Shown: positions 1 through 5,804, counted from the first letter of the stretch. The stretch is DNA of 5,804 bases from a virus (IMGVR_UViG_2690316296_000004:1-5804); one strand, 5' to 3'. Program-made: numbers and translations. Notes: generated by a model not told the origin, from the sequence alone.

Positions 1-217
1 CGAGGGCAGGGCGGGGTATGCCAGGTTTATCCTCGCAGACAATAAATTTATAAGCGCAGTCCTGAGCAGCCGGATAATGTTCCAGGAATTGCCAGTGAAA
101 TTTTGCGCGGGCGCGACATTCATCACCGGCTTCAATGGCAGTGGCTACAGCGACTGCACCTTCTTCCTTTATTGCCTGTTCGTCCGGAATGGCGGCGCAA
201 ATAAAGACTTTACTCAT
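1..217 (-). CDS. Hypothetical prophage protein, partial (N-terminal 72 codons; C-terminus beyond the left edge). Begins MSKVFICAAIPDEQAIKEEGAVAVATAIEAGDECRARAKFHWQFLEHYPAAQDC...
   Basis: Hand-translated minus-strand ORF: ATG at 217-215, in-frame stop just upstream (226-224), open to position 2. SD-like GAGGT 8 nt upstream of the ATG. Lies 92 nt downstream of ydfD on the same strand. Not in the ORF track because it is truncated. Identity not recognised. Confidence 0.5.
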   Translation of the reverse strand, partial: MSKVFICAAIPDEQAIKEEGAVAVATAIEAGDECRARAKFHWQFLEHYPAAQDCAYKFIVCEDKPGIPRPAL

Positions 218-309
218 TTTGTTTTACCTCATTACAGATTTAAGGGTGAACAAATCCCTGCCATTGCTGGCATATAAGAATGAAACCGGATATTTATTAC
301 GGAACTGTT

Positions 310-501
310 TTAAAGACCTGCCGGGATTTCGTTATTATCCTGGTGAATAACTTTATCGACCGGGTAACAGTTACCGGGAATTTTCTGTTCGGTTGCTGCA
401 GTCACACACTCCTGCATTGTCCTGTGAACACTGACTGCAATATCAACTGGCTCTCCGGAAACAAGAAAAACTGTCAGAACAAGTGCAAATGCTGTATTCA
501 T
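310..501 (-). CDS. ydfD: YdfD-like small prophage lysis protein (63 aa, MNTAFALVLTVFLVSGEPVD...EIPAGL), hydrophobic N-terminal segment
   Basis: Internal start of the 81-aa track ORF (310..555). The ATG at 501-499 overlaps the dicB stop (500-498) as ATGA, a translational-coupling arrangement. The 63-aa length and position directly after dicB match Qin ydfD as I recall it. Confidence 0.75.
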   Translation of the reverse strand: MNTAFALVLTVFLVSGEPVDIAVSVHRTMQECVTAATEQKIPGNCYPVDKVIHQDNNEIPAGL

Positions 502-686
502 TGCCAGCATCCTTTTTGTATCGGACGTAAACGGGCCAGCATTGAAAGAATGCATATTTTATTTAATAACTCCCGTTCGTGTTTTCTCTTGTTAATGGCA
601 TCTTCAGTAAATACAGGGTTACTGATAGTGACACCAATTTCAAAACAACCTTCAGACGTATTAACGTTTGGTAATAACGTTTCCAT
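498..686 (-). CDS. dicB: DicB cell-division inhibitor (62 aa, METLLPNVNTSEGCFEIGVTISNPVFTEDAINKRK...)
   Basis: Internal Met of the 97-aa track ORF (498..791). The 62-aa product matches the DicB sequence as I recall it, with a few substitutions. GAGGA SD 7 nt upstream of the ATG at 686-684. Lies 174 nt downstream of DicF on the same strand. Confidence 0.88.
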   Translation of the reverse strand: METLLPNVNTSEGCFEIGVTISNPVFTEDAINKRKHERELLNKICILSMLARLRPIQKGCWQ

Positions 687-855
687 TATCGCGTCCTCAA
701 CAATGAATTTTGTGATGCGATGCCTGGTGCCTCCAGGTGACGTTAACCAGTTAACAATTAACGCCGGATACAGAGAATCCACCCATAACACTGTTTTTGG
801 TTTTAACTGTTCCGCGTGCGCTCAGCCGCATTCACCACATCACAAAATTCACTTT

Positions 856-898
856 AAAAAGGGCGGCAGAGCAGTCACGGAGTAAAACTGATACCGCC
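856..898 (-). terminator. Intrinsic (Rho-independent) terminator forming the 3' end of DicF: GGCGG...CCGCC stem plus U5 tract
   Basis: On the minus-strand RNA, GGCGG pairs with CCGCC around an inner CAGU/ACUG helix and is followed by UUUUU (plus-strand AAAAA at 856-860). Confidence 0.6.
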
Positions 899-913
899 AA
901 ACGTCACCAGAAA
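861..913 (-). ncRNA. dicF: DicF small regulatory RNA (53 nt; Hfq-dependent antisense regulator of ftsZ mRNA)
   Basis: Reverse complement of 861..913 reads TTTCTGGTGACGTTTGGCGGTATCAGTTTTACTCCGTGACTGCTCTGCCGCCC, which matches the mature DicF sequence as I recall it, followed by a U-tract. It sits between ydfC and dicB as in the Qin dicB operon. Confidence 0.85.
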
Positions 914-938
914 ATTGATAACAGAGGGCGTTGCAGCG

Positions 939-975
939 GGGTTGTCACTTAAGCGTATGGTCAACCTGACAACCC
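939..975 (-). other. Potential RNA stem-loop in the dicF precursor leader (9-bp perfect inverted repeat GGGTTGTCA / TGACAACCC, 19-nt loop)
   Basis: Inverted repeat seen directly. It lies 26 nt upstream of the mature DicF 5' end on the transcribed strand, inside the ORF-free ydfC-dicF spacer (914-1254). Confidence 0.35.
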
Positions 976-1254
976 GGTGTCCTCAACGGGGGAAGGAATA
1001 ACCCCGCCATACTTACCGCCGCGCCATTTCGCGGATTGCCACAACCGGAAGCGCACGGTCGACGAAAATTTAACGACAGGCTATCTATGAACCAGCTACC
1101 TCGCCGTGCGCTTTCGCGTTATGGTCTGACTTTTCAGGGAAATATCCTTTCAGTAAACTGTCAATGCCGGATGCTCACCCGTGTCCGGCGCACGCACTCC
1201 ACCTCACCCGTGGAGAACTCCTTAATTACTAACCTTAGCTTTGTTGATTAGCTA

Positions 1255-1473
1255 CTAACGCGGGTATGTAATCATTCTGGCAATGCTTAATGCCGCTGCT
1301 TTTTCCAGATTGGTGATATCCTGCTCCAGAGCGGACAGATTTTCAGCCTGCTTAGCTCTGGCTTCATTGGCCCATTTCAGATCCTGCGCTGCATTAATTT
1401 TCTGGTGCATCCACTCATAAAGTTCATCATCGGTATAGTCTGGCGCGATGATGACGGGTTCTCGTTTCTGCAT
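1255..1473 (-). CDS. ydfC: YdfC-like small prophage protein (72 aa, MQKREPVIIAPDYTDDELYEWMHQKINAAQDLKWANEARAK...)
   Basis: Track ORF 1255..1473. GAGGAA SD 5 nt upstream of the ATG at 1473-1471. Starts 29 nt after ydfB. Symbol assigned from size and operon position (third gene of the dicB operon), not from verified sequence recall. Confidence 0.75.
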   Translation of the reverse strand: MQKREPVIIAPDYTDDELYEWMHQKINAAQDLKWANEARAKQAENLSALEQDITNLEKAAALSIARMITYPR

Positions 1474-1502
1474 ACTGATTCCTCGCGGTGCTGTTTCGCT
1501 TA

Positions 1503-1631
1503 TCAGCCGTTAGATTTTGCCGAACTGGAAAGCGCCTGTTTAAATTCGTTGAAGCTGAGAGCTTCTTCGCCTTCGGCAAGACCTTCGAAGTATTCTTCGT
1601 AAGCCTTTTCCATGATTGTGTCGAAATCCAT
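1503..1631 (-). CDS. ydfB: YdfB-like small acidic protein (42 aa, MDFDTIMEKAYEEYFEGLAEGEEALSFNEFKQALSSSAKSNG)
   Basis: Hand-translated; below the track's size cutoff. ATG at 1631-1629 and stop TGA at 1505-1503. AGGTGA SD 5 nt upstream. Only 1 nt separates it from the ydfA stop. Matches YdfB as I recall it. Confidence 0.8.
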   Translation of the reverse strand: MDFDTIMEKAYEEYFEGLAEGEEALSFNEFKQALSSSAKSNG

Positions 1632-1632
1632 A

Positions 1633-1788
1633 TCACTCACCTGAGTTTCTTTCCAGCCAGCGACGGGCACCATTTTCGGTTTTAAACGTTTTGCTTTTGG
1701 TATACGTCATCGCGGTGAACGTACCGTCCTGGTTGGGAAACACGCCGTACACCAGAGATTCGTTGTTGCCAAGATCGATAGTATCCAT
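1633..1788 (-). CDS. ydfA: YdfA-like small prophage protein (51 aa, MDTIDLGNNESLVYGVFPNQDGTFTAMTYTKSKTFKTENGARRWLERNSGE)
   Basis: Internal Met of the 69-aa track ORF (1633..1842). GAGG SD 5 nt upstream of the ATG at 1788-1786. First gene downstream of the PdicB-like promoter. Matches YdfA as I recall it. Confidence 0.8.
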   Translation of the reverse strand: MDTIDLGNNESLVYGVFPNQDGTFTAMTYTKSKTFKTENGARRWLERNSGE

Positions 1789-1865
1789 GCTGACCTCATT
1801 TCCCCTTAACGCTGGGGTAGCGGAACTGTTTGCTGAGAACACCGTGCGGTGTGTTGATGCAAATA

Positions 1866-1894
1866 AGATTAGCCATGGCTAACATATAGGTCAA
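1866..1894 (-). promoter_or_regulatory. Putative sigma70 promoter of the ydfABC-dicF-dicB operon (PdicB-like) with the operator palindrome TTAGCCATGGCTAA (1869..1882) embedded in the spacer and -10
   Basis: Minus-strand reading: TTGACC (-35; plus 1894-1889), 17-nt spacer, TAATCT (-10; plus 1871-1866). The perfect 14-bp palindrome overlaps the spacer and -10. Predicted start near 1858-1860, giving a roughly 70-nt leader to the ydfA ATG. Confidence 0.5.
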
Positions 1895-1954
1895 GTGATT
1901 TTGTATGTTATGGCTAACATGATTGATGTGGTAAAAGATAACTCATTGATGATG

Positions 1955-2362
1955 TTATCTTTTATTTGTCCGCTGACGGGCTTTTAGTAATTCTTCAAAG
2001 AGTTTATTGAAGTTTTTTACTCGAGCTCGCATTTCGGCGAGCTGGGTATCCTGTTCTGATTCTGGCAGTGCATTAAACAGCTCAAGGAGCTCTAGTTCTT
2101 TGGGGGATAAGGCAACTGGCTTCTCAACAGGTGGTGTTGGTTGCTTGTCTTCATCGCCAAATAGAATCCATGTTGGTGAGCATTGCAATACTTTGCTGAG
2201 GGCAAAAAGGTTCTTCCCTGTAGGTTCACTATCATCCCGTTCCCATTGTGATACAGACACATGGGAGATTTTCAGGGCTTTAGCAAGAGACCTTTGGGTG
2301 TGTTTGAGGTTTTTCCGACGATACCTAATGCGTTCGCCGATAGTTAAATTTTTTGTTTCCAT
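1955..2362 (-). CDS. dicA: DicA, XRE-family HTH repressor (135 aa; P22 C2-like DNA-binding domain without a C-terminal S24 peptidase domain)
   Basis: Track ORF. HTH signature QRSLAKALKISHVSVSQWERD. Matches DicA as I recall it. Divergent from dicC, with palindromic operators in the 83-bp intergenic region. Confidence 0.92.
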   Translation of the reverse strand: METKNLTIGERIRYRRKNLKHTQRSLAKALKISHVSVSQWERDDSEPTGKNLFALSKVLQCSPTWILFGDEDKQPTPPVEKPVALSPKELELLELFNALPESEQDTQLAEMRARVKNFNKLFEELLKARQRTNKR

Positions 2363-2364
2363 AG

Positions 2365-2378
2365 TTAGCTAATGCTAA
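2365..2378. promoter_or_regulatory. Operator-like palindrome TTAGCTAATGCTAA (TTAGC-N4-GCTAA) 2 nt upstream of the dicA start codon
   Basis: Inverted 5-bp half-sites seen directly in the sequence. Same family as the palindromes at 1869..1882 and 2413..2430. Confidence 0.55.
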
Positions 2379-2384
2379 ATCGTA

Positions 2385-2413
2385 TTGACTATGTTTTTGT
2401 TAACATCTATTTT
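2385..2413 (+). promoter_or_regulatory. Putative sigma70 promoter for dicC: TTGACT (-35, 2385-2390), 17-nt spacer, TATTTT (-10, 2408-2413)
   Basis: Consensus-like hexamers at canonical spacing. The 18-bp operator palindrome starts at the last base of the -10 and covers the predicted start site. The dicC SD AAGGTG (2434-2439) lies 6 nt before the ATG at 2446. Confidence 0.55.
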
Positions 2414-2430
2414 GTTAGTCATGACTAACA
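2413..2430. promoter_or_regulatory. Operator: perfect 18-bp palindrome TGTTAGTCATGACTAACA overlapping the start of the dicC transcript
   Basis: Perfect dyad symmetry seen directly. Core TTAGT-CATG-ACTAA resembles the other two operator-like sites. Confidence 0.6.
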
Positions 2431-2445
2431 ATAAAGGTGTTTTAA

Positions 2446-2676
2446 ATGCTTAAAACTGACGCTCTTTTGTATTTCGGTTCAAAAACAAAACTTGCACAAG
2501 CAGCAGGTATTCGTTTGGCTTCGCTTTATAGCTGGAAAGGGGATTTAGTTCCCGAAGGTCGCGCGATGCGTCTACAGGAGGCATCTGGCGGGGAGCTTCA
2601 GTATGATCCCAAAGTTTATGATGAATATCGTAAGACGAAGCGGGCGGGGCGGTTGAACAATGAAAATCACTCCTGA
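2446..2676 (+). CDS. dicC: DicC, Cro-like small regulator (76 aa)
   Basis: Track ORF MLKTDALLYFGSKTKLAQAAGIRLASLYSWKGDLVPEGRAMRLQEASGGELQYDPKVYDEYRKTKRAGRLNNENHS, which matches DicC as I recall it. Divergent from dicA, SD AAGGTG. Confidence 0.9.
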   Translation: MLKTDALLYFGSKTKLAQAAGIRLASLYSWKGDLVPEGRAMRLQEASGGELQYDPKVYDEYRKTKRAGRLNNENHS

Positions 2677-3181
2677 ACAGGCTCGTGAGGCTCTGGATGC
2701 CTGGATATGTCGACCAGGAATGACACAGGAGCAGGCGACGATATTAATCACTGAAGCATTCTGGGCTTTGAAAGAGCGCCCGAACATCGATGTTCAGCGT
2801 GTCACAGATGAAGGTGGCGCGGTTGATCAGCGAGCGCTTGGCGTTAATCGAGTGAAGATATTCGAACGCTGGAAGGCTATCGACACCAGGGATAAGCGTG
2901 AAAAGTTCACGGCGCTAGTGCCTGCGATTATGGAGGCTATCCGGATTAGTGATTTCAGGTTGTATCGTGAGATCAGTGATGGAAAAAGTATTACGTACAT
3001 GATCGCCGGGTTAAATAAAGAATATGGCGATGTGGTGGAATCCGGACTGCTTTTTGCAGATCCTGCCGTTGTAGATCGTGAAACTGACGAACTTATAGAA
3101 AAAGCAATTGCTTTCAAGCTTGCGTATCGACAGCAATACCAACAAAAAGCTGGATGGAATTATGAGTCTTCTTTTTGCTGA
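2660..3181 (+). CDS. Putative CII-like / YdaT-family early regulator (173 aa), first gene after the Cro-like gene
   Basis: Track ORF. ATG at 2660 overlaps the dicC 3' end by 17 nt. G-rich SD (GGGCGGGGCGG) 7 nt upstream. Family assignment rests on position (cro-proximal, before the replication gene) and a vague resemblance to YdaT-type proteins; not verified. Confidence 0.7.
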   Translation: MKITPEQAREALDAWICRPGMTQEQATILITEAFWALKERPNIDVQRVTDEGGAVDQRALGVNRVKIFERWKAIDTRDKREKFTALVPAIMEAIRISDFRLYREISDGKSITYMIAGLNKEYGDVVESGLLFADPAVVDRETDELIEKAIAFKLAYRQQYQQKAGWNYESSFC

Positions 3182-4127
3182 ACGCCCACTGGTTATAAAC
3201 ACGCAGCTGGCAATGAAAATCGGCTTAAACGAAGCCATTGTTTTGCAACAACTGCACTACTGGTTGAGAGATACCAACTCCGGTATGGAATGTGATGGTG
3301 TTCGCTGGATTTATAACACAACGGAACAATGGCTGGAACAGTTCCCATTCTGGTCAGAGTCAACGTTAAAGCGCGCGTTTGCAAGTCTGAAAACGCTGGG
3401 GCTTTTGCGTTGTGAAAAGCTCAATAAATCAAAGCGCGATATGACCAATTTCTACACGATCAACTATGGGAGCGAGCTTTTAGATGGTGGCAAATTGAAC
3501 GAATCCATCGGTTCAAAATGCGCCGCTCCATCAGGTCAAAATGACACGATGGAAGAGGTCAAAATGAAACGCTCCATTGGTTCAAAACGATCCAATGTCA
3601 TCGGGTCAAAATGGCCTGATGATCTTACAGAGAATACAACAGAGATTACTACAGAGAATAAAAACACTTTTCGTCCGGAAGCTTCGCAACCGAACCCGCA
3701 GACGACTGAACAGGATTTTTTAACCCGGAACTCCGACGCGGTTGTGTTTAGTGCGAAAAAACGCCAGTGGGGTAGCAGGGAGGATTTGGCGTGTGCGCAG
3801 TGGATCTGGGGGCGGATCGTGGGTCTCTACGAACAGGCAGCCAGTGATGATGGCGAGATCATGCGACCAAAAGAGCCTAACTGGACTGCCTGGGCCAATG
3901 ACGTGCGCACAATGCGGATGCTGGATGGCAGAAGCCACAGACAAATTTGCGAAATGTTTGGTCGGGTTCAGCGAGATCCATTCTGGGTAAAAAACATCAT
4001 GAGCCCGTCAAAGCTCCGCGAAAAATGGGACGAACTGGTCATCCGCCTGGGACGTTCACCTGTACAGCGTTGTGTTAATCATATTTCTGAACCGGATACA
4101 GAAATTCCGCCTGGTTTCAGAGGATAA
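3162..4127 (+). CDS. Phage replication initiation protein (321 aa from ATG 3162): N-terminal winged-helix replisome-organizer-like domain, central low-complexity linker, C-terminal DnaT-like domain
   Basis: Track ORF 3108..4127 opens with TTG and no SD. I prefer ATG 3162 (MSLLFAERPLVINTQLAMKIGLNEAIV...), which overlaps the upstream gene by 20 nt. N-terminal FWSESTLKRAFASLKTLGLL resembles replisome-organizer HTH proteins. An iteron array lies inside the gene. The C-terminal region resembles DnaT C-terminal-like domains from memory. Confidence 0.82.
   Translation: MSLLFAERPLVINTQLAMKIGLNEAIVLQQLHYWLRDTNSGMECDGVRWIYNTTEQWLEQFPFWSESTLKRAFASLKTLGLLRCEKLNKSKRDMTNFYTINYGSELLDGGKLNESIGSKCAAPSGQNDTMEEVKMKRSIGSKRSNVIGSKWPDDLTENTTEITTENKNTFRPEASQPNPQTTEQDFLTRNSDAVVFSAKKRQWGSREDLACAQWIWGRIVGLYEQAASDDGEIMRPKEPNWTAWANDVRTMRMLDGRSHRQICEMFGRVQRDPFWVKNIMSPSKLREKWDELVIRLGRSPVQRCVNHISEPDTEIPPGFRG
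3505..3613. repeat. Iteron array (probable prophage replication origin): five direct repeats of about 15 bp with core GGT(T)CAAAA(T/C)G at roughly 22-25 bp spacing
   Basis: Repeats at about 3505-3520, 3528-3543, 3556-3566, 3574-3589 and 3599-3613, followed by an A/T-rich stretch with three ACAGAGA(A/T)T repeats (3625-3662). Analogous to ori-lambda lying inside gene O. Confidence 0.6.
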
Positions 4128-4167
4128 GTGTTGATTTCAGGTCATGAGGTAATTTTAAGGGGGACTT

Positions 4168-4623
4168 GTGGCAAAAGTTTTTACACAAGAAGAGCGGGAA
4201 AAAATTAAAGGGCAGGTGGTGGAACTCGTGCGCCAGAGCGGTCGTGAGACGTTACGGCAACTGGAAGCTAAAACAGGTGCGACTAGATATCTGATGAGCG
4301 TTCTTGCCAGAGAGCTGGTAGCCAGTGGCGATGTATACAACTCCGGCTACGGGTTATTCCCGTCTGAACAGGCGCGTAAGGACTGGCAAAACGCCCGCAA
4401 AAAACTCTCGAGGGCAAAGGTGAAGAAACCTGCTGTGGTTGATCCGGACCTTATCTGGTCATTACCTGACGGAGAAATACGTCGCTACGACAGTCGTCTA
4501 AACATAATCTGTCGCGAGTGCCGGAAGAGCGAAGTGATGCAACGCATACTGGCGTTTTATCAGGGAAATGTTCAGCATTTTGAAGTAACGATATTAAAGT
4601 GCATTAGTTCAAATGTGAAATGA
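4168..4623 (+). CDS. Hypothetical prophage protein (151 aa); possible winged-helix N-terminus and a C-terminal CxxC pair (ICRECRK)
   Basis: Track ORF with GTG start at 4168, preceded by a strong SD AGGGGG (4158-4163). Starts 40 nt after the replication gene. Function not recognised. Confidence 0.7.
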   Translation: MAKVFTQEEREKIKGQVVELVRQSGRETLRQLEAKTGATRYLMSVLARELVASGDVYNSGYGLFPSEQARKDWQNARKKLSRAKVKKPAVVDPDLIWSLPDGEIRRYDSRLNIICRECRKSEVMQRILAFYQGNVQHFEVTILKCISSNVK

Positions 4624-4846
4624 CATTTCTGTTGTATAGGATTAGATTAAAACTGGCATTGTTGTCTGCTTTGTACTAGGAGTGACCGTTTACACAGACC
4701 ACGTCCCAGTAGACGCTCTTGACATAATCGTTGAGATGTCCAACTTTCGGAGCTCACCTCATGCCCCAGATGTTTTTTGTTTTCAGGAGAAAACTATATC
4801 GCAGAACTACGAACTAAACTTATGTCATAACTCATGCAAAAAACTC

Positions 4847-4876
4847 TTCGGCTAAACATTAAAAAAATCTTATAAT
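4847..4876 (+). promoter_or_regulatory. Putative promoter of the AT-rich accessory operon: perfect -10 TATAAT (4871-4876) with a weak -35 (TTCGGC-like) and an upstream A-tract
   Basis: Perfect TATAAT 39 nt upstream of the ATG at 4915, with A7 directly upstream (4861-4867). No convincing -35, so the assignment is tentative. Confidence 0.3.
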
Positions 4877-4914
4877 GCGAATCATATTTTGTTACATGTT
4901 CAGGAGCGCAAAGG

Positions 4915-5742
4915 ATGTCCCAGTACGACAAAGCCACGCAAACAGCAGGTTTAGTACGCATAACTAATCAATTAGAGTCTATATACGGAACTTTTATTGA
5001 TATGAAAGATATTAATTCCGTAGGAGAGCATAGGAAAGAAACTCTAATTACACGCTGTGTAGCTGCGCATGCAATCAGCTTGTATGGTGATGAACCAGAC
5101 CCTGAGTTAGCTGCTAATGCTGTCTGCGATGGAAAAGATGATGGCGGGATAGATGCAGTTTATGTTAATAAAAATTCGAGAAAGATAGTAATAGTTCAGT
5201 CAAAATATATTAAAAATGGCGACGGTTCTATAACCACAAGAGAATTCGGAAGATTCAAAGACGCATGCGCAAAAGTAATAGCCAGCGACTTTACAACATT
5301 TAACGAAAGGTTTTTAAGAAACAAAGACTCCATAATTGAAGCAATCTCAGGATTTACATATAAATGTATATGTGTATTTATATATACAGGGGTTCATGAG
5401 CCAAGCGAAGAAGTAAAATCAGACATAGAGTTTTGGGAAAAGGTTCAGAATCGGTCTCTATTATTTAAAGATATAGAGAATAGAGATGAGTATTCAGTGC
5501 TATTCGAGCCGGCAGGTATACAAGTGATAATGGATGGTCTTTCTAATGATCGATCAAAATCTATAAATGTTAGCAATGTTCACCTTGAAAGTTATGGAGA
5601 GATAGCAGAACCTTATAAAGCAATATACGGAACAATATCCGCAAGGATCCTATACGACTGGTGGGAAAAGTACAAGTACTCTCTGTTCGAGAAAAATATA
5701 AGAATGATCTTACCCAGCAATAGTGGACACGCGGCTAAGTGA
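4915..5742 (+). CDS. PD-(D/E)xK-type (Mrr-cat/AIPR-N-like) putative nuclease, 275 aa; candidate anti-phage defence or abortive-infection effector in an AT-rich moron
   Basis: Track ORF. SD AGGAG (4902-4906) 8 nt before the ATG. Motif CDGKDDGGIDAVYV...KIVIVQSKYIK (residues 71-100) fits the GxD / (E/Q)xK pattern of the restriction-endonuclease-like fold. Rare codons ATA/AGA are frequent and G+C is markedly lower than in the flanking phage genes. Confidence 0.8.
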   Translation: MSQYDKATQTAGLVRITNQLESIYGTFIDMKDINSVGEHRKETLITRCVAAHAISLYGDEPDPELAANAVCDGKDDGGIDAVYVNKNSRKIVIVQSKYIKNGDGSITTREFGRFKDACAKVIASDFTTFNERFLRNKDSIIEAISGFTYKCICVFIYTGVHEPSEEVKSDIEFWEKVQNRSLLFKDIENRDEYSVLFEPAGIQVIMDGLSNDRSKSINVSNVHLESYGEIAEPYKAIYGTISARILYDWWEKYKYSLFEKNIRMILPSNSGHAAK

Positions 5743-5769
5743 GTAAACTCTCAGTCAGAGGTGACTCAC

Positions 5770-5804
5770 ATGACAAAAACAGTATCAACCAGTAAAAAAC
5801 CCCG
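5770..5804 (+). CDS. Start of a second gene of the accessory operon (MTKTVSTSKKP...), truncated by the window edge
   Basis: ATG at 5770, 27 nt after the stop of the 275-aa gene, with SD AGAGGTGA (5757-5764) 5 nt upstream. Only 11 codons visible. Confidence 0.45.
   Translation, partial: MTKTVSTSKKP

Follow-up and report, generated by a model that had tools for sequence, protein, structure and literature searches.

In proteins of the AbiU1/AIPR type, according to an earlier description, a nuclease domain of the ParB superfamily is fused with other nucleases (PMC3632139). A 2026 review treats AbiUi as a system of one component, which delays phage transcription and lowers the efficiency of plating by no more than 10- to 100-fold (PMC13064643). 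In the same work the AlphaFold model of AbiUi was superimposed on FokI with 146 residues aligned (PMC13064643). Here we analyzed a gene of this family in Escherichia coli. It is located at the right end of a stretch of 5,804 bp, referred to as the window, which represents the entire draft E. coli contig CYCP01000051.1 (GCA_001284245.1) and covers the early part of a defective lambdoid prophage of the Qin type (DicA/DicC/DicF/DicB). An initial annotation had interpreted positions 4624-5804 as an AT-rich accessory operon encoding a candidate uncharacterised anti-phage system, composed of a 275-amino-acid (aa) protein with a nuclease-type motif and a second gene starting at 5770. Based on our analysis we would rather regard the region 4624-5704 as the 5' 45% of a single-gene AIPR/AbiU-like cassette, which occupies the slot that follows the DUF977 gene and precedes hokD/rem/ydfU/Q in Qin-type prophages and was cut by the insertion sequence (IS) IS3 after codon 263. 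We assign a probability of roughly 0.92 to this reading.

Junction between the AIPR gene and IS3

To place the region, window 4624-5804 was compared by megablast with 5,426 complete E. coli genomes. The part from 4624 to 5704 was found in 37 of them with 99.7-100% identity. The match stopped at position 5704 in all, and all 37 loci are annotated as 'AIPR family protein' in RefSeq. In strain GE3 the intact gene is 1,776 bp in size, encodes 591 aa (WP_000084874.1) and has the DUF977 gene on one side and hokD-rem-ydfU-ydfT(Q) on the other. The loci that carry WP_000084874.1 (GE3, 2009C-3133, E24377A and others) share with the window the DNA of 4624-5704 (100%), the first 263 residues, the upstream spacer and the position after the DUF977 gene. 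However, their gene is intact (591 aa) and followed by a hairpin and hokD, whereas the copy in the window is cut after codon 263 and has neither the AIPR nor the C-terminal domain on the contig.

Direct alignment with the intact locus showed perfect identity through position 5704, after which the sequence changes abruptly to TGATCTTACCCAG... From here on the window is identical to the K-12 element IS3D (1,258 bp; insE/insF) over bases 1-100, and the remainder of the element is off the contig. The terminal inverted repeat starts with TG and the beginning of insE is identical to the reference IS3. When used alone, 5705-5804 matched thousands of sites on E. coli chromosomes and plasmids.

This composition affects both genes proposed initially. 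The open reading frame (ORF) 4915-5742 is present and has 275 codons for amino acids, but it is a truncated chimera and not a native product: 263 native residues, forming an identical prefix to the intact protein, are followed by 12 residues contributed by IS3. The 'hypothetical protein' under which it is listed in the databases (CTW31828.1 / WP_261289294.1) is the product of a chimeric pseudogene. Likewise, an ATG is found at 5770, but the gene starting there is the insE of IS3 and not an operon partner.

A native operon of two genes, in which a 275-aa nuclease and its partner at 5770 would form an unnamed anti-phage system, is consistent with the location of both ORFs on the same strand, with their Shine-Dalgarno sequences and with an AT-rich block in a variable slot. 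We consider its probability to be practically nil. The supposed partner and the last 12 codons of the first ORF belong to IS3, and in the intact allele a single gene of 591 aa stands alone, with first a hairpin and then hokD behind it. The AIPR orthologs of Cronobacter (85% identity), Pectobacterium (59%) and Serratia (56%) are solitary as well; they have unrelated neighbours, and no conserved partner gene was found beside them in these three genera.

Further orthologs with 59% identity form the main cargo of the plasmids NZ_CP138750.1 (Klebsiella, 5,627 bp) and NZ_CP101377.1 (Salmonella, 5,632 bp). Their presence on plasmids of about 5.6 kb indicates that small plasmids, besides prophages, serve as vehicles for the single-gene module. 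Distant AIPR homologs are also present in temperate phages. In total, the same architecture was seen in more than 1,100 AIPR homologs with a length of about 590 aa, and PF10592 was found in 120 of 120 among the homologs listed.

Some points weigh against the interpretation as an IS3-truncated AIPR/AbiU-like cassette. Of the two IS3 junctions the window shows the left one only; the contig ends before the right junction with its 3-bp target duplication and before the place where the 3' 328 codons would be expected. Among the 5,426 complete E. coli genomes not one had the exact AIPR-IS3 junction (best coverage 92%), which was found in a single draft contig only. Additionally, the promoter candidate has a matching -10 but only a poor -35, and the E. 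coli subfamily is only distantly related to AbiU (36% identity over 106 aa; 82.9 versus 590 bits).

The contig is a short draft one, stops 100 bp inside a multi-copy element and has a junction found in no complete genome, all of which could also reflect an assembly chimera at the repeat, the gene being intact in the strain itself. We give this explanation a very small chance. The switch is located exactly at base 1 of the inverted repeat (TG...), as produced by transposition and not by random mis-joins, and this speaks for a genuine transposition. The end of the contig, 100 bp inside IS3, lies in a multi-copy repeat, the kind of place at which short-read assemblers break. In short-read assemblies, a contig that breaks off inside an IS after the length of a read or k-mer is the usual sign of a true insertion. 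Furthermore, the same gene is independently disrupted by IS elements or frameshifts in the strains SW070912, VTB96935v, 488, C9 and PK8566. In SW070912 a different IS3-family element of 1,330 bp (locus L009 1985-3314) is inserted near AIPR codon 64 (GE3 locus L001 ~8479-8484). The gene is split in VTB96935v, 488 and C9 and truncated in PK8566. The AIPR cargo decays repeatedly, as seen from two independent IS insertions and the frameshifted or truncated copies.

For the IS3 insertion in the window the expected target duplication is GAA (5702-5704). The right end of IS3 reads ...ACGTGGGTAGGATCA, and the native sequence beyond the expected GAA duplication is GTGTCCTCGGTAATTC.

Limits, composition and upstream signals of the cassette

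The left limit of the cassette is at about position 4628, and 35-37 genomes continue past ~4628-4632. The DUF977 gene was present in 4,153 of the 5,426 genomes; those without AIPR lose homology to the window at ~4575-4632. On the right side, homology resumes at position 10273 of the GE3 locus (L001), 206 bp after the AIPR stop codon. According to these limits the cassette is a discrete single-gene module of approximately 2.27 kb, of which the 5' 1.08 kb (4624-5704) is found on the window. On the GE3 chromosome (NZ_CP012376.1) the intact cassette spans 1733215-1735483, which corresponds to L001 ~8005-10273. Directly after the AIPR stop codon the GE3 locus carries a 14-bp perfect hairpin (L001 10068-10099; AAGTAAGAGCCACC-loop-GGTGGCTCTTACTT), which is probably the terminator of the cassette.

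In other strains the slot carries different cargo: two hypothetical genes and a DUF4145 protein, other hypothetical genes and an integrase, a methyltransferase and decayed genes, or IS3 and IS100. The presence/absence polymorphism at a fixed slot and the deviant composition (37.0% G+C versus 46.2 ± 1.7%) are those of a moron. This is in agreement with the position first suggested for the block, since the slot directly behind the replication module of this lambdoid prophage is hypervariable and was indeed found to hold an AT-rich accessory cassette.

Unrelated cargo was located at L005 5567-9132, L006 5321-8162, L007 5188-8254 and L008 5128-8333. One example consists of a 449-aa DUF4145 (HEPN-related) protein and two small hypothetical genes, and uncharacterised proteins of 314 aa and 449 aa were seen as well. 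The cargo proteins of these strains may be further defence candidates. In some genomes homology to the window already breaks at ~4575 within the region 4575-4632, inside the 3' end of the DUF977 gene, indicating that cargo-swapping recombination sometimes takes in the DUF977 C-terminus.

The G+C content of 4624-5704 was 37.0%, compared with 46.4% for the sequence upstream, and same-sized windows within 1-4623 had a mean of 46.2% (standard deviation 1.7, minimum 42.6%; chi-square p = 3e-8 for the contrast with the upstream part). The G+C content at third codon positions was 30% in the AIPR fragment versus 38-50% in the neighbouring genes. The abrupt change in composition after the 151-aa gene, originally noticed from two samples, is beyond chance in this quantitative comparison. 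The sampled stretches had 29% (5161-5260) and 57% (3781-3880), respectively, but the replication gene overall reached 47.9% and not the 'well over 50%' that had been claimed. Moreover, the AT-rich block deviates as described only in 4624-5704 and is not one unit, as 5705-5804 (45% G+C) is the left end of IS3.

The intergenic region is 291 bp long as stated earlier, from the end of the DUF977 gene at 4623 to the next ORF at 4915. A strong Shine-Dalgarno sequence had been reported for this ORF, and AGGAG was found 8 nt before the ATG. It is kept in the Cronobacter cassette, the closest one outside E. coli, together with TATGAT at the -10 position. The proposed promoter of the block's own was only partly recovered: a perfect TATAAT is present, but the best -35 hexamer matches in 3 of 6 positions, and for this reason the TATAAT was not called by a generic sigma-70 scan. 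The generic promoter and terminator scan of 4500-5000 left the TATAAT uncalled, gave no terminator and yielded counts at the level of shuffled sequence.

A GTG-initiated ORF of 57 aa on the plus strand of the spacer (4682-4855) is probably spurious, because the part of the spacer that could be aligned (from 4700) is not conserved in the cassettes of Cronobacter, Pectobacterium and Serratia. Most RefSeq records lack it, and a few RefSeq genomes label it 'hypothetical protein'.

Predicted domains and relation to known systems

The intact protein of strain GE3 matched the Pfam family AIPR (PF10592) at residues 258-413 with 115.7 bits (E=4.5e-33; gathering score 25 bits). AIPR was among the profiles that the initial annotation had put forward. 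For the 275-aa ORF of the window there was no AIPR match at E<=0.1 and no significant family match in profile searches, because IS3 cut the gene after residue 263 and the domain starts at residue 258. This ORF is a gene fragment of an AIPR family member and not a functional member. Additionally, the intact protein matched the PADLOC model of AbiU (PDLC02357) with 82.9 bits (E=6.9e-24), covering positions 44-366 of 537 (60%). The pair of genes had been considered uncharacterised and not assignable to a named system; this does not hold, as RefSeq names the AIPR family and the AbiU model was matched.

A sequence search of the PDB gave nothing at E<=1. AlphaFold modelled the N-terminal 263 aa with a predicted local distance difference test score (pLDDT) of 87 and a predicted template modelling score of 0.79, and the full-length protein with a pLDDT of 84. 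The top structural match of the N-terminal model was the cleavage domain of FokI (10.1), followed by AspBHI (8.5), AF1548 (8.4), MspJI (8.1), N.BspD6I (7.7), NucS (6.6) and HamA (6.4). The residues D72, D76, D80, Q95 and K97 were invariant in the N-terminal part of 72 diverse homologs. The modelled domain has the restriction-endonuclease-like alpha/beta core and the conserved acidic...(D/E/Q)xK triad of the PD-(D/E)xK superfamily. Its D...QxK variant is the form used by Mrr, MspJI and AspBHI. With FokI as top match and the five invariant residues, the nuclease-type motif noticed earlier is borne out at the fold level.

The central domain of the full-length model gave weaker matches to ParB-like or sulfiredoxin-fold proteins, namely PadC (6.2), Pnob8 ParB-N (5.7), BrxU (5.6), KorB (5.1), Srx (5.1) and SspE (5.0). 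On the basis of the models, the 591-aa protein is predicted to begin with a FokI/MspJI-type PD-(D/E)xK (D...QxK) nuclease domain, spanning residues ~60-260 of the N-terminal part. The central AIPR domain, which starts at residue ~258, is predicted to have a fold like that of ParB/DUF262, and the C-terminus to form a helical domain.

Lactococcal AbiU, encoded on the L. cremoris plasmid pC42, resembles the E. coli protein in size (589 versus 591 aa), in the Pfam AIPR core, in an (I/V)(I/V)QSK motif within the N-terminal domain and in the superimposition of this domain on FokI. Both are single-component and both match the PADLOC AbiU model. FokI was obtained as top structural match of the E. coli protein independently of the AbiUi review. 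However, the pairwise similarity of 36% identity is restricted to 106 aa of the AIPR core, and the L. cremoris protein scored 590 bits over positions 1-532 of the PADLOC model, compared with 82.9 bits over positions 44-366 of 537 for the E. coli protein. Furthermore, the lactococcal gene is located on a Lactococcus plasmid, whereas the E. coli gene is found on an enterobacterial prophage without an AbiUii-like neighbour. The E. coli AIPR protein is a distant relative of AbiUi with the same size and architecture, and not its ortholog.

Similarities to other systems were confined to single domains or folds. The N-terminal domain shares 9-15% sequence identity with FokI and with nucleases of the MspJI/AspBHI/Mrr type; in place of a FokI recognition domain or an SRA-like reader domain the E. 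coli protein has AIPR partners of predicted ParB-like fold. With GmrSD/BrxU and SspE it would have in common the coupling of a ParB/sulfiredoxin-fold domain, predicted here, to a DNA nuclease within one defence protein (PMC3632139), but the domain order is reversed and the nuclease is of the PD-(D/E)xK and not the HNH/DUF1524 type. MzaE of the MZA system was considered and rejected. It has an AIPR domain in common with the E. coli protein (PADLOC 7e-15; NF041935 8e-16), with the match confined to E. coli residues 242-391. The score for NCBIfam NF041935 was 57.6 bits versus a cut-off of 1,050, and the neighbours are DUF977 and hokD, without MzaA-D. In the literature no paper on an AIPR gene of an E. 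coli prophage was found; hits for the whole word 'AIPR' from 2022 onwards were nearly all unrelated acronyms.

We infer an anti-phage role for the intact E. coli protein. It might act as an anti-phage nuclease effector within one polypeptide. The ParB-like and C-terminal part would sense the infection, or bind nucleotide or DNA, and would license the N-terminal nuclease to cut DNA. The outcome would be a partial resistance of the AbiU type with delayed phage transcription.

Alternatively, the intact protein could be a Type IV-like restriction enzyme that cuts incoming phage DNA in a modification- or nucleotide-dependent manner, rather than an abortive-infection (Abi) suicide factor. We regard this as a serious but less likely rival. 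The protein would then resemble GmrSD/BrxU/SspE (ParB-like DUF262 domain plus nuclease) or MspJI/AspBHI. The frequent linkage of AIPR genes to restriction-modification systems (PMC3506569, PMC3632139) is in favour of such an enzyme. On the other hand, no recognisable reader domain for modified bases (SRA-like or similar) was found in the protein, GmrSD/SspE have their domains in another order and a nuclease of another type, and the only characterised relative, AbiUi, is classed as Abi with delayed transcription (PMC13064643).

In the window the insertion point after codon 263 falls into the interdomain linker, whose native residues 264-266, just past the cut, are of low confidence in the AlphaFold model. 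The entire Pfam AIPR domain is lost and the truncated allele is most likely null. It appears very improbable to us that a 275-aa product is still made from its own promoter and works as an independent nuclease domain, in a deregulated or dominant-negative manner. The promoter-like -10, the Shine-Dalgarno sequence and a complete, confidently folded N-terminal domain were kept, and the cut is within the linker. Yet FokI-type cleavage domains have to be dimerised or targeted by way of other domains, toxicity and hence counter-selection would be expected of a deregulated nuclease, and the recurrent decay of the gene in other strains points to plain loss of function. A wider proposal is that the AIPR subfamily of enterobacterial prophages is a defence enzyme complete in itself, its FokI/MspJI-type D-QxK nuclease being gated by a ParB/DUF262-like domain that would sense nucleotide or DNA, and that the domain freed by IS3 might keep a deregulated, dominant-negative or re-purposed activity. 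We consider this proposal, too, to be very improbable.

A partial homolog of 269 aa (P0123, ENA6606938.1) is encoded on 4 contigs of another set of assemblies, and these contigs end only 6 codons 3' of the IS3 site. These ends may represent a second IS junction in the same AIPR interdomain linker.

Prophage context and significance

The features of the window are compiled in Table 1. The location of DicF beside dicB confirms the Qin/Kim-type immunity and cell-division module dicA-dicC-dicF-dicB. For the replication-O-like gene the 321-aa form is used by RefSeq and by the contig's own gene calls; its protein gave no significant Pfam match. The DUF977 protein has 151 aa in the window versus 140-141 aa in most related prophages. 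The exonuclease gene at the left contig end is common to several lambdoid prophages, and both contig ends (exonuclease on the left, IS3 on the right) look like repeat-induced assembly breaks.

Table 1. Positions of prophage, cassette and IS3 features in the 5,804-bp window
Feature	Position	Strand	Remarks
Exonuclease gene, 5' end	1-217	-	contig left end 72 codons into the gene
ydfD-like/DUF1482 gene			early region of the prophage
dicB	498-686	-	
DicF antisense small RNA, full length	861-912	-	Rfam RF00039, 76.7 bits, E=3e-16; adjoins dicB
ydfA-like genes			early region of the prophage
DicA-type repressor	1955-2362	-	
DicC/Cro	2446-2676		
YdaT-like gene			early region of the prophage
Replication-O-like gene	3108/3162-4127	+	two candidate starts: TTG 3108 (339 aa) or 3162 (321 aa)
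DUF977 gene	4168-4623	+	151 aa; Pfam DUF977 E=1.7e-29; last conserved gene of the replication module
Upstream region of AIPR cassette	4624-4914	+	291 bp, 38.5% G+C
Candidate -10 TATAAT	4871-4876	+	weak -35 TCGGCT (3/6), 17-nt spacer; promoter role presumed from sequence
Shine-Dalgarno AGGAG	4902-4906	+	8 nt 5' of ATG 4915; conserved in Cronobacter
5' fragment of AIPR-family gene	4915-5704	+	codons 1-263 plus one base; complete N-terminal PD-(D/E)xK nuclease-like domain (predicted)
IS3-encoded tail of chimeric ORF	5705-5742	+	12 codons (MILPSNSGHAAK) plus stop
IS3 left end	5705-5804	+	100/100 identical to bases 1-100 of the 1,258-bp IS3D of K-12 MG1655
IS3 terminal inverted repeat	~5705-5743	+	starts with TG
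IS3 transposase orfA (insE), start	5770-5804	+	MTKTVSTSKKP...; aligned to the K-12 IS3A/IS3D insE annotation

The gene in the window is a disrupted copy of an already known gene family that is annotated in RefSeq. The initial annotation was partly right: the accessory cassette, the defence-type family and the nuclease domain were recognized, but not the single-gene organisation, the named family and the loss of intactness. What appeared to be an operon of a nuclease and its partner is corrected to an IS3-truncated copy of a gene that is named in 37 complete E. coli genomes. In Qin-type prophages, the place behind the DUF977 gene is a genuine hot spot for cargo, including AIPR, DUF4145 proteins, methyltransferases and IS elements. 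For the mechanism of the AIPR/AbiU family, the predicted domain map with a FokI-like D-QxK nuclease, a ParB-like domain and a helical C-terminus is relevant in the intact alleles rather than in the copy of the window.

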